A stretch of 64,000 bases of DNA. It comes from an uncultured archaeon (GTDB lineage Archaea; Halobacteriota; Archaeoglobi; Archaeoglobales; Archaeoglobaceae). Below the pieces are notes generated by a model, which saw only the letters and a list, made by a program, of their open reading frames with translations, was not told where the DNA came from and did no database searches. A program made the position numbers and the translations under genes. Each line of letters opens with the position of its first letter. The first letter of the stretch is position 1. Where the stretch lies: positions 20,327 to 84,326 of the forward strand of contig CAZQTT010000001.1 of assembly GCA_964596255.1 (NCBI GenBank), read 5' to 3'. Shown one piece after another: positions 26,604 through 32,288 of the stretch.

Positions 26604-28205
26604 TTGATTATGATAATAATAATGAATATGCAAACGGGTACTATTACTGGCCAAAGTGTTCCTAGTCATTATAAAATCATAGAACAACTTTACGGTGAAC
26701 TGGATCACAATATCTTAAACAATAAAGAGCCTCCTGAAAATATAGAGGTCATAGACGATTACTGGGTTGTGCCTGGTTTCTCTAAAATACAGATCTGGAG
26801 AGATTATGTGGATAAATTCGAGTACAATTACGTTCTTATTGAACCGCCAATATCTGAAGAGGAATACTCTCTACTTAACTCTATCTACAATGATATGAGA
26901 CGCTCTCTGGTATTGAATGACTATTCTACAGATGAGAGCACCAAAACTACGGTAATAATGGAGGTTCTGGACGAATTGATAAAGGAATATGCTCTTGAAT
27001 TGGAACCAGAGCTAAAAATGAAAATCCTGTATTATCTATTGAGGAACTTCATAGGGTTTGGTACCATAGATTCCATCCTGAACGATAAGTATGTAGAAGA
27101 TATATCATGCGATGGATATGACATCCCCCTCTACATTTTTCATACCAAGCACGGAGGGATGCGAACAAACGTGAAGCTCAGCAGGAACAGACTCGATTCT
27201 CTGGTAACACTGCTCTGCCAGAAATCAGGTAAATACATCTCTTATGCAAATCCGCTTATAGATGCTTCCCTACCTGACGGAAGCAGACTTCATGCAAGTT
27301 ACGGAGAGGAGATAACTCCCAGAGGAAGTAGTTTTACCATAAGAAAGTTCAAGGAAGACCCTTATACTCCAATCGATTTGATGAATTTCGGCACTCTAAG
27401 TTCTGACATAATCGCTTATTTCTGGTTGCTTATGGAGCACAAAATGAACGTTATGGTTATAGGGGAGACTGCCAGCGGGAAGACCACCACACTAAATGCT
27501 TTAACTATGTTCATTCCTCCCGAATCAAAAATTGTGTCCATAGAAGATACCAGAGAGATTCAACTTAATCACGAAAACTGGATAGCTGAACTAACACGAA
27601 TCGGAATTGAAGGAAGTGGAGAAATCTCAATGTATGACCTGTTGAAGACCACTTTGAGGCAAAGGCCGGATTACATAATTGTGGGTGAGATCAGGGGAGT
27701 GGAAGGGCAAACCCTTTTCCAGGCCATGTCCACAGGCCACTCGTCGCACTCTACGCTACATGCAGGGGATATGAGTCAGCTTATTTACAGATTGGAGAAC
27801 GAGCCTTTAAAGATACCCAGGATCATGATACAGTTTCTTGATGCCGTTGTGGTGCAGAACATGTGGTCCGGAAAAGGTGTGAGGAAAAGGAGAGCCAATC
27901 AGGTGAGCGAGATATTTGGTATTGACCAGACAAATAAGGATTTGCTTTTGAACCCTATTTACAAGTGGAACTCGGCGAAAGACTCGTTTGCAATTCAATC
28001 TCAATCTAAAAAACTGAAGAAGATCTCAGAAGTTACCGGTGAGAGCGTCTCCATAATTCAAGAAGAGAAAAAAAGAAGAAAATTATTCCTGGAAAAAATG
28101 CAGAGAAGAGGTATAAGCAATTATAACGACTTTTCCCATTTCGTTAATATCTATTATAAAGATAGCCAAAAAGCTATGGAGAGGTTAGATGAGGGAACGG
28201 GTTAA
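26604..28205 (+). CDS. FlaI/ArlI-like type IV filament assembly ATPase (type II/IV secretion NTPase family)
   Basis: Walker A VIGETASGKTTTLNAL, Walker B PDYIIVGEIRG and His box GHSSHSTLHA. The start is ambiguous among several TTG/ATG codons at 26604-26631. Confidence 0.9.
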   Translation: MIMIIIMNMQTGTITGQSVPSHYKIIEQLYGELDHNILNNKEPPENIEVIDDYWVVPGFSKIQIWRDYVDKFEYNYVLIEPPISEEEYSLLNSIYNDMRRSLVLNDYSTDESTKTTVIMEVLDELIKEYALELEPELKMKILYYLLRNFIGFGTIDSILNDKYVEDISCDGYDIPLYIFHTKHGGMRTNVKLSRNRLDSLVTLLCQKSGKYISYANPLIDASLPDGSRLHASYGEEITPRGSSFTIRKFKEDPYTPIDLMNFGTLSSDIIAYFWLLMEHKMNVMVIGETASGKTTTLNALTMFIPPESKIVSIEDTREIQLNHENWIAELTRIGIEGSGEISMYDLLKTTLRQRPDYIIVGEIRGVEGQTLFQAMSTGHSSHSTLHAGDMSQLIYRLENEPLKIPRIMIQFLDAVVVQNMWSGKGVRKRRANQVSEIFGIDQTNKDLLLNPIYKWNSAKDSFAIQSQSKKLKKISEVTGESVSIIQEEKKRRKLFLEKMQRRGISNYNDFSHFVNIYYKDSQKAMERLDEGTG

Positions 28206-30083: not shown

Positions 30084-32288
30084 ATGAGGTTGATTGGCGA
30101 CGAAAAAGGTGTTTCTCCCCTTCTGGGGTTCATCCTTATGTTAATGATATTGATGATTTCCATATCTGCTTTGCAGACCCAATTTGTGCCTGATGTGTGT
30201 AAAGATATTGAAGCAGACCATATGAAACAGATTACCAGTCAGCTACTGGAGCTAAAAAGCGTCTCTTCAACTAAAAACGTCAAACTTGATATGGGAGTGG
30301 ACTACCCAGAGTACCTTTTCCTCATAACCCCTAGATCTACAGCTACCACGATGAACGTAAAGGAGTTCAATGTTAGTGTTGAATATACCGAGATCCTGGC
30401 CAACGGTTCAAAAATCGATAGAGAAATAAATCTCACTTCCAGCAGGATTGAGATATCTCCAAATTATCTTTTCTACCCCAAGGACGAATTAATTCTGGAG
30501 AATACTGCGGTACTCAAGCGTGCAGGCGGAAACTACGTTTCCATTTCTGATCAGAGGTCTTTTAAAAATGAAGTGAACTTCATGCTGTTGAACGCCACTT
30601 TTGACTCTGTTTCGAGCACACAATCTTTGAGTGTATTTTCAGTACCACAATCTTCAGGTGGAAGAGTTATGGCCGAGAATCTATCTATCTCATTTGAAAG
30701 TGTCTATCCTCAATACTGGGAAGGCATTGAGGACTATAATGTTACAGTCAATGGTAACAATGTAACCATTAGAGAAGACGAAAGGATCGCATTCGGTCTT
30801 GACGAGGTAATGCTCTACACTGGCAATAAGAGAAGTACTGAGTCAAATCCTTCCCGTATGGTTAAGACCAATTCTCTGGATAATTTTAGTCTAAAGGAAG
30901 GTGAGTCAGTTAAAATGGGAGTAAAGGTTCTTGACAAGCATAATAACCCCATAGAAGGCGTCAATGTTAACGCAAGTGCAAGTTCAAGTATTGGAGAAAC
31001 GAGTCCTTCAAACTTGTACACAGATTCCGATGGTGAGGTCTACACCACATTCAGCGCTCAAAATGTTGGAGTAGGAACAGTGACCTTTAACTGCTCAGAA
31101 TTAGAGAATAACGTCAGCTATAACGTATCCATTACAACAATAACCGGTGATTCTTCCTTATCCATATCTTTATCCAGTGATCCAGATGCTGATGTTGATG
31201 GCTACTCCAGCAAGACAGTTAAGGCATACGTATCTTCTGAAGGTGATCCCCTGCCAGGATTCAACGTGGTCTTTGCCGCAAACAGCACTGATGCAAATTT
31301 CAACTCAACTGAAGTTAAAACAAGCCATTCTGGTTATGCATCGGCAACTGTCTCGCAGAGCGAATTGGGTGCGAACTGGCATAAAGTGTACGGGTATGCA
31401 GGTAGTGCTATAGATTCTTTAGATGTTTTACTCAACACTAGTTGGGTTGGAGAAGTTAAAATTATCTCTAATGTCAAGGATTCTTGGGAAACTGTCAATC
31501 TTGCAAATTCCTATGGAAACCCGGTGGTCGTTTGCACATACAACTTGAAGAAAGACAATAATAATGAGGCACTGGTCAGAATCGACAATGTTCAGAGCCA
31601 GAGTTTCGACATGAAAATTCAGAACCCCGAAAATGATAACGTTAACCCTAACAACGTTTACTGTGTTATCATAGAAGAAGGGGACTGGACTCTTTCCGAT
31701 GGAACCAGGATGGAGGCATACACAGTAGTTTCTGATGGAACTAACCACGATGGGGACTGGAGCTCTAATAAAATGGAGAATGCGGGTTATTCCCAGTCCT
31801 ATAACAACCCGGTAGTAGTTGGACAGGTTATGAGTTACAATGACTCCCGTTGGTCCACATTCTGGAGCAGTAATGGAAATTCAGCTAATCCATACGATTC
31901 TTCTAACCTTTATACAGGAAAACATGTTGGAGAAGATACTGAGACTACAAGAAACAACGAGATCTTAGGATACGTTGTAATCGAGGAGGGCTCAGGAACA
32001 TTGAGCGGAATAAATTATGAAGCAGCTTTGGGTGGCGATTCTATTAGAGGTGTTGACGATAGTCCACCTTACTCATATGGTTTAGGCGACACGTACTCTG
32101 TGGGAGTGGCTTCAAACACAGGAATGGACGGTCCCAATGGAGGATGGGCTGTCTTATACGGCAACAATCCTTTGTCCAGCCAGATAGATTTAGCCATAGA
32201 TGAGGACACCATTGAAGACTGGGAGAGAAGCCATACCACTGAACAGGTGGGGTACTTGGTCTTTGACTCTGAAGGCTCGTTCAGGTGA
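30084..32288 (+). CDS. Large surface protein with an archaeal class III (type IV pilin-like) signal peptide, Ig-like (Big_1-type) domains and a repeated C-terminal beta-domain
   Basis: The N-terminus MRLIGDEKG/VSPLLGFILMLMILMISISAL fits the archaeal pilin N-terminal pattern. Two Ig-like segments are present (VKVLDKHNNPIEGVNV..DGEVYTTF; VKAYVSSEGDPLPGFNV). Many N-x-S/T sequons. Confidence 0.75.
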   Translation: MRLIGDEKGVSPLLGFILMLMILMISISALQTQFVPDVCKDIEADHMKQITSQLLELKSVSSTKNVKLDMGVDYPEYLFLITPRSTATTMNVKEFNVSVEYTEILANGSKIDREINLTSSRIEISPNYLFYPKDELILENTAVLKRAGGNYVSISDQRSFKNEVNFMLLNATFDSVSSTQSLSVFSVPQSSGGRVMAENLSISFESVYPQYWEGIEDYNVTVNGNNVTIREDERIAFGLDEVMLYTGNKRSTESNPSRMVKTNSLDNFSLKEGESVKMGVKVLDKHNNPIEGVNVNASASSSIGETSPSNLYTDSDGEVYTTFSAQNVGVGTVTFNCSELENNVSYNVSITTITGDSSLSISLSSDPDADVDGYSSKTVKAYVSSEGDPLPGFNVVFAANSTDANFNSTEVKTSHSGYASATVSQSELGANWHKVYGYAGSAIDSLDVLLNTSWVGEVKIISNVKDSWETVNLANSYGNPVVVCTYNLKKDNNNEALVRIDNVQSQSFDMKIQNPENDNVNPNNVYCVIIEEGDWTLSDGTRMEAYTVVSDGTNHDGDWSSNKMENAGYSQSYNNPVVVGQVMSYNDSRWSTFWSSNGNSANPYDSSNLYTGKHVGEDTETTRNNEILGYVVIEEGSGTLSGINYEAALGGDSIRGVDDSPPYSYGLGDTYSVGVASNTGMDGPNGGWAVLYGNNPLSSQIDLAIDEDTIEDWERSHTTEQVGYLVFDSEGSFR

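Follow-up and report, generated by a model that had tools for sequence, protein, structure and literature searches.

Archaeal type IV filament machineries of the System 2 kind have as their type case PilB3-PilC3 of Haloferax volcanii, with the pilins PilA1-6 encoded in trans (PMC4858521; PMC13705601). System 2 typically shows duplicated ATPase-platform loci that lack pilins, PilA encoded in trans, and "large adhesin-like proteins" (PMC4858521, PMC13705601), and a 2026 survey stated the roles of the extra loci as unknown (PMC13705601). Two predicted pilin families of euryarchaeal clade 2 type IV pili (T4P), arCOG02916 and arCOG02911, have also been described (Makarova, Koonin & Albers 2016, PMC4858521). 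Here, we analyzed a 64,000-nt stretch (the window) of contig CAZQTT010000001.1 from an Archaeoglobaceae metagenome-assembled genome (MAG; assembly 97.8% complete), in which genes for an assembly ATPase and a platform protein are followed directly by one encoding a 734-aa protein. The sequences of the three genes are best explained by an archaeal type IV filament cassette of System 2 (clade 2, PilB3 type) in its minimal form. We lean, with modest confidence, toward an adhesive role in a System 2 (PilB3/PilA-type) pilus: the 734-aa protein would be a modular minor pilin or tip adhesin, and the major pilin would be encoded in trans.

The locus resembles System 2 in the PilB3_C extension of its ATPase, its single fused platform gene, the several paralogous ATPase-platform loci in the genome, and a stand-alone PilA. 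Unlike the pilB3 locus of H. volcanii, which has no pilin, the Archaeoglobi operon includes a large pilin-like gene. With arCOG02916 and arCOG02911 the 734-aa protein shares variable length, an all-beta body, a hypothesized minor-pilin role, and adjacency to a FlaI-type ATPase and TadC in some genomes. However, arCOG02911 lengths are given as about 250-550 aa in PMC4858521, and neither an architecture of Big_1 domains plus a lectin-like module nor a three-gene Archaeoglobi cassette is described there. A bacterial parallel is found in the T4P of Streptococcus sanguinis, whose modular minor pilins PilB and PilC carry a vWA and a lectin module, respectively (PMC8179133, PMC9934059). These likewise join a pilin moiety to a C-terminal adhesive module, and low abundance and binding of glycans or proteins are traits of PilB and PilC; they have no detectable sequence homology to the 734-aa protein and use another signal motif and peptidase, so that the likeness is one of architecture only. 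Finally, the Sulfolobales bindosome (BasEF with class III sugar-binding proteins) resembles the cassette in that a type IV filament (T4F) ATPase and platform may serve large, non-classical class III proteins, but no solute-binding domain or adjacent ABC transporter occurs at the Archaeoglobi cassette and its Bas scores are low.

A Predicted Three-Gene Type IV Filament Cassette

The genes of the cassette, and the parts of its third product, are as follows.

26604..28205, + strand: PilB3/FlaI-like type IV filament assembly ATPase of the System 2 / clade 2 type (T2SSE and PilB3_C)
28189..30072, + strand: TadC/ArlJ-like platform protein, one fused gene, 627 aa, two T2SSF domains (Pfam)
30084..32288, + strand: 734-aa protein
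30084..30110, + strand: predicted class III signal peptide MRLIGDEKG, residues 1-9, predicted cut after G9
30111..30893, + strand: predicted pilin domain, residues 10-270, arCOG02916-like, remote relative of DUF7289 (structure model and profile searches)
30894..31439, + strand: stalk of two Big_1 Ig-like domains, about residues 271-452 (Big_1 59.9 bits)
31446..32285, + strand: exchangeable distal module of 280 aa, residues 455-734, with an H-type-lectin-like start (homologue comparison)

An initial annotation of this DNA had reported an ATPase and a platform gene overlapping by 17 nt and then a single 734-aa open reading frame (ORF). This arrangement was recovered at the positions above, with the third ORF starting 11 nt after the platform gene. 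As listed, the ATPase ORF opens with TTG, and alternative ATG codons occur at 26610, 26622, and 26628; the true start is probably an ATG within 26610-26628, because relatives of the ATPase are 523 aa long. The ATPase matched the Pfam models T2SSE (124.4 bits) and PilB3_C (29.6 bits, or 32.9 bits when the whole genome was searched; cut-off 27), and the platform protein matched T2SSF in two stretches (98.2 bits). We assign the cassette to System 2 on two grounds, the PilB3_C extension of the ATPase and the encoding of the platform by one fused gene, both of which are described for System 2 (PMC13705601).

Two other identities for the machine were tried and rejected. Against an archaellum, the FlaI NCBIfam model scored 393 bits (cut-off 550), archaellins are encoded on contigs C46 and C94, and the ATPase belongs to a separate clade of the tree described below. 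The bindosome, which the initial annotation had offered as one option, was discarded on scores of 229 bits for BasE (cut-off 1000) and 36 for BasF (cut-off 1300), and on the absence of a solute-binding protein domain. Compared with the ArlJ, UpsF, and BasF NCBIfam models, the platform protein fell far below every cut-off.

The 734-aa ORF is the sole candidate for a class III signal within positions 23000-36500. When this interval was scanned for ORFs of at least 30 aa with an N-terminal hydrophobic helix, only the 734-aa protein and the platform were retrieved; other such ORFs fall within other genes, out of frame or antisense. No A24 prepilin peptidase is encoded within the window. Hence two further statements of the initial annotation, that the gaps contain no small pilin ORF and the window no prepilin peptidase, stand, and one A24 peptidase was located elsewhere in the genome.

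A Class III Signal and a Pilin-Like Domain in the 734-aa Protein

The 734-aa protein begins MRLIGDEKG/VSPLLGFILMLMILMISISAL, with K at position -2, G at -1, and then VSPLLGF and a hydrophobic stretch. A charged residue at -2, G or A at -1, and about 20 hydrophobic residues characterize class III signals, and all three are present. The class III-type N-terminus noted initially is thus real, and EKG/VSPLLGFILMLMILMISISAL is nearly invariant among nine homologues of 59-88% identity.

An AlphaFold 2 (AF2) model of residues 1-270, built from a 40-sequence alignment, was of high confidence (predicted local distance difference test, pLDDT, 90.3; predicted template modeling score, pTM, 0.81). It predicts a 46-residue N-terminal helix (residues 12-57) followed by a beta sandwich of 13 strands, which is the pilin layout of a long N-terminal helix and a beta-rich head. 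Sequence profiles linked this domain most closely to DUF7289: hhalign aligned the whole N-domain with a DUF7289 protein of the same genome over 210 columns (92.7% probability, E = 4.4e-7), and a distant relative (P0156) scored 30.4 bits against DUF7289. DUF7289 (PF23960) itself gave no match to the 734-aa protein at the gathering cut-off of 27 bits, and the profile link to PilA was limited to the first 31 residues. A sequence search of the PDB returned no match.

An exhaustive search with residues 1-270 yielded 496 cluster representatives at E <= 0.001. The match was always N-terminal, in proteins of about 250 to 2021 aa with varying C-terminal passengers, among them Big_1, DUF2341, LamG, and PKD. 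The shared N-terminal pattern consists of [KR][GA]-VS-x3-GF, a hydrophobic stretch, and Q-x3-VP-x-W-N-K-x2-E-x2-H, and [KR][GA]-VS-x3-GF was kept at the predicted cleavage site in about 150 diverse family representatives. Certain relatives exceeded the Pilin_N or DUF7289 cut-off (P0028 and P0165 for Pilin_N). The initial annotation had considered the protein far too large for a filament subunit, which is reasonable for a major subunit; as an anomaly the size does not stand, since the family spans 250 to 2021 aa.

The query also matched an Archaeoglobus fulgidus homologue at 1459278-1459913 (E = 2.1e-36). The A. fulgidus entry gi 11499217 (1459275..1461020) is tabulated in PMC4858521 as arCOG02916, "predicted pilin family protein", clade 2, FlaFind-positive. 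We therefore infer that the 734-aa protein belongs to arCOG02916, a placement made through the coordinates of one listed homologue.

Stalk and Exchangeable End Module

The Big_1-type Ig domains reported initially were found in two stretches of the mature part (Pfam, 59.9 bits), and the stalk region was conserved in all nine close homologues. These are alike over residues 1-455 and then diverge: some end in the 280-aa module, others in DUF2341 or in a short tail (about 110 aa). The 280-aa module was found in 362 protein clusters from bacteria and archaea, where it is fused to peptidases, cadherin-like, PKD, GEVED, and LamG domains, and other archaeal Pilin_N proteins. In certain proteins it occurs in tandem (P0168), and the peptidases to which it is fused include M6, S1, and S8. 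Pfam coverage of the module does not extend past its H-lectin-like start.

H_lectin exceeded its cut-off in homologues, at about the first 60 residues of the module. At the same position of the 734-aa protein it reached only 14.7-16.6 bits, and because of these scores carbohydrate binding by the end module is a reasonable but weak suggestion from sequence.

The many N-glycosylation sequons remarked upon initially are indeed present, 16 N-x-S/T in total; they are not enriched over composition, as shuffled sequences gave 13.1 +/- 3.1 and 22% of shuffles reached 16. Fifteen fall within residues 61-455, the pilin head and Ig stalk (window 30264-31448), and one in the 280-aa end module.

Pilins, Peptidase, and ATPases Elsewhere in the Genome

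A genome-wide census of class III substrates and peptidases, as the initial annotation had proposed, retrieved a PilA-type pilin, a pilin cluster on contig C19, a paralogue of the 734-aa protein, archaellins, and a single A24 prepilin peptidase. Under strict FlaFind-like criteria, the archaellins and C19 pilins, in which an acidic or Gln residue stands early in the mature part, were overlooked; a relaxed scan found both, with many false positives. The A24 peptidase (G000:C46:17851-18573, 52.5 bits) lies beside two archaellin genes. DEK[G/A] precedes the predicted cut in archaellins (KDEKG/Q), PilA (ADEKA/V), and the 734-aa protein (GDEKG/V), a common motif that would fit a single peptidase of broad specificity.

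The PilA-type pilin is a stand-alone gene (G000:C30:4508-5056, 182 aa, Pilin_N 81-83 bits) in a neighborhood free of ATPase genes, and with it the genome has PilA-family pilins available in trans, as is often the case in System 2. Six class III pilin genes are clustered at G000:C19:22881-28575, without a nearby ATPase or platform gene. The products of 221 and 244 aa belong to DUF7289, that of 840 aa combines DUF7266 with vWA, and the other three are 140, 182, and 296 aa long. The design of the vWA protein makes it an archaeal counterpart of PilB, the S. sanguinis modular pilin with a vWA module. The paralogue of the 734-aa protein, 373 aa long, also stands alone (G000:C68:11797-12918, 228 bits over the pilin domain). 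Its N-terminus reads MDDRG/VSPLVGFIL, it stops after one Ig-like region, and its gene is close to a contig end; similar stand-alone paralogues are present in relatives (L010-L012).

Four ATPases of the genome are of the PilB3_C type (contigs C1, C12, C3, and C15), and a platform gene lies beside three of them, with none detected at C12. Two ATPases are of the archaellum type (C46 and C94), and archaellin genes occur on the same two contigs. Besides the full archaellum locus on C46, a second archaellum-like locus with archaellin-like genes, ATPase, and platform was found at G000:C94:794-6195.

These inventories leave two candidate sources of shaft pilins. The 734-aa protein could be the same modular minor pilin with the C19 cluster and not PilA as its partner, in a PilB4-type filament split over two loci. 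The nearest named relatives of its N-domain are DUF7289 proteins, two of which are encoded in the C19 cluster, and that cluster is without its own ATPase or platform. However, the mature N-terminus VSPLLGFIL resembles that of PilA (VSPVIGVIL), and an acidic or Gln-led N-terminus sets five of the six C19 proteins apart; over 20 residues, nine are identical to PilA versus three to eight for the C19 set. The ATPase-platform pairs on C15 and C3, plus the C12 ATPase for which no platform was detected, could also serve the C19 pilins. We regard a C19 partnership as rather unlikely.

Distribution of the Family and Cassette across Archaeoglobi

The pilin-domain family was present in 82 of 96 Archaeoglobi genomes, and 89 of the 96 had small Pilin_N pilins scoring above cut-off, at genomic sites other than the cassettes. 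PilA occurred without the family in 11 genomes and the family without PilA in two (Fisher p = 0.02, uncorrected for phylogeny); the two genomes that have the family and no Pilin_N match are only 79% and 89% complete.

A same-strand ATPase-platform-pilin cassette was found in six genomes retrieved via homologues and in at least 10 genomes overall. The close loci all come from Archaeoglobales MAGs. Across 18 informative loci, one per genus, the same-strand cassette was also present in four; in six the ATPase pair was divergent from the pilin gene, within about 3.5 kb, or the order was ATPase-pilin-platform (L022), and eight had no ATPase within 7-9 kb of the pilin gene. No small class III ORF was found beside the cassette or family loci in any locus examined. 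At L022 6283-10706 (G033), the protein encoded between ATPase and platform is a distant family member, and the branch leading to the ATPase is very long.

In a maximum-likelihood tree, the window ATPase fell within a 14-member clade (support 92/98), apart from the paralogues on C3, C12, and C15 and from archaellum ATPases; its split from two archaellum ATPases had support 100/99. A family gene lies beside all 14 members, a count that is biased because the tree loci were selected through the pilin gene, and that demonstrates clustering in one lineage, not frequency.

These patterns bear on a reading in which the ATPase and platform serve only the 734-aa protein, and perhaps its 373-aa paralogue, as a short pseudopilus or stub with no PilA shaft. 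Such a stub would raise the stalk and its lectin tip over the S-layer, functioning in a bindosome-like manner as a display device for an adhesin. In agreement with this, the cassette has a sole class III gene in every genome examined, its linkage to a single ATPase clade is conserved, two genomes (the incomplete ones above) have the family and no Pilin_N match, and class III binding proteins have been proposed to functionalize T4F machines in the 2026 survey (PMC13705601). Yet almost all genomes with the family also have PilA-type pilins, and about half of the family members are unlinked to any ATPase. The BasE and BasF scores lie far under cut-off, with no substrate-binding domain and no adjacent ABC transporter, and a passenger of ~680 residues on each subunit would be hard to pack helically. 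We consider a one-substrate machine unlikely.

Neighboring Genes

Downstream of the cassette, three genes follow on the same strand.

32410..34239, + strand: sensor with three PAS domains and DUF835 (Pfam), 121 nt downstream of the 734-aa ORF
34253-35056, + strand: first KaiC-like ATPase (Pfam KaiC, 29.3 bits)
about 35056-35736, + strand: second KaiC-like ATPase (Pfam KaiC, 194.2 bits)

These genes are probably regulatory context. The sensor was syntenic only in L002, L007, and L009, which are close relatives, and the KaiC pair followed the cassette in L002, L003, L007, and L009 and was absent from cassettes of other genera. KaiC linkage was thus rejected as a general property of the cassette, being confined to the genus of the window and its closest relatives. 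In Archaeoglobus sp. JdFR-22 (L003 10354-14546), the conserved KaiC pair is preceded by genes for a KaiC/DUF835-like protein, a KaiC-small GTPase fusion, Roadblock/LC7, and V4R, and the GTPase genes amount to an MglA/MglB-like module adjoining the pilus cassette. Upstream, on the minus strand (23330-26384), lie a divergent Mrr_cat-KaiC fusion, an actin/MreB-like gene, and a 195-aa gene, a block whose synteny with the cassette extends to L002 and L007 and not to Archaeoglobus sp. JdFR-22.

A role for this context has been built into a self-sufficient form of the one-substrate machine, in which a stub of the 734-aa protein alone would display, and perhaps retract, the lectin-tipped stalk, with PAS-DUF835 and the KaiC-like proteins as its switch in this genus. 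It would be an adhesin-display device distinct from pili and bindosomes, and we judge it improbable.

A Proposed Modular Minor Pilin

We favor the modular minor pilin because the pilin N-domain was modeled with confidence, the N-terminus is conserved, the family is catalogued, and the cassette recurs. Two suggestions of the initial annotation combine well here: that the protein is a giant minor pilin or tip adhesin, and that the pilins are encoded at other sites. Together they fit the N-domain, the catalogued family, and the pilins and peptidase of the genome. On this account, the single A24 peptidase would remove the nine residues MRLIGDEKG, and the ATPase and platform would lift the helix from the membrane. 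The 734-aa protein would then join the filament as a low-abundance subunit, most likely as its tip or priming subunit. Small pilins supplied in trans would form the shaft, the C30 PilA-type pilin being the first candidate and the C19 cluster the second. The glycosylatable stalk of two Ig domains would project the exchangeable lectin-like module outward, where it may bind a glycan or surface ligand for adhesion.

Several observations count against the modular minor pilin. Pilin_N matched only positions 1-25 of the 734-aa protein, at 16.7-17.7 bits and under the cut-off of 25.2. A Foldseek search of the PDB with the N-domain model gave no match for the beta head (best E = 0.011, TM-score about 0.1). 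Structure prediction for the mature protein, which the initial annotation had proposed, was successful for residues 1-270; the full-length AF2 model, from 10 sequences, was of low confidence (pLDDT 38). About half of the family genes in other genera are not adjacent to an ATPase, and the linkage within the ATPase clade carries the selection bias stated above. Nor is there a specific tie between cassette and PilA, given four PilB3-type ATPases and two separate pilin sources.

Some of these points would suit a protein that is no substrate of the machine, an uncleaved signal-anchor holding a membrane-tethered surface lectin or adhesin, with gene position reflecting co-regulation only. The Pilin_N score under cut-off, the lack of a structural match to solved pilins, and the many family members that stand alone are in keeping with it. 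A plain anchor would not, however, need the cleavage-site conservation seen in some 150 diverse representatives, and the 11-nt spacing and the cassette are kept across genera; the AF2 model, moreover, is of a pilin-like helix-plus-head. We therefore hold an uncleaved anchor to be very unlikely.

Both the family and this type of locus are already catalogued in archaea. The architecture of Big_1 domains plus a lectin-like module and the conserved Archaeoglobi cassette are a modest addition and not a new kind of system. What the modular minor pilin reading would offer is a defined, conserved three-gene unit for studying how System 2 archaeal pili gain adhesive specificity, in which a constant pilin domain and Ig stalk are set against a swapped end (the 280-aa lectin-like module, DUF2341, or a short tail). 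As the cassette is present in relatives with cultured genomes, the question is approachable.

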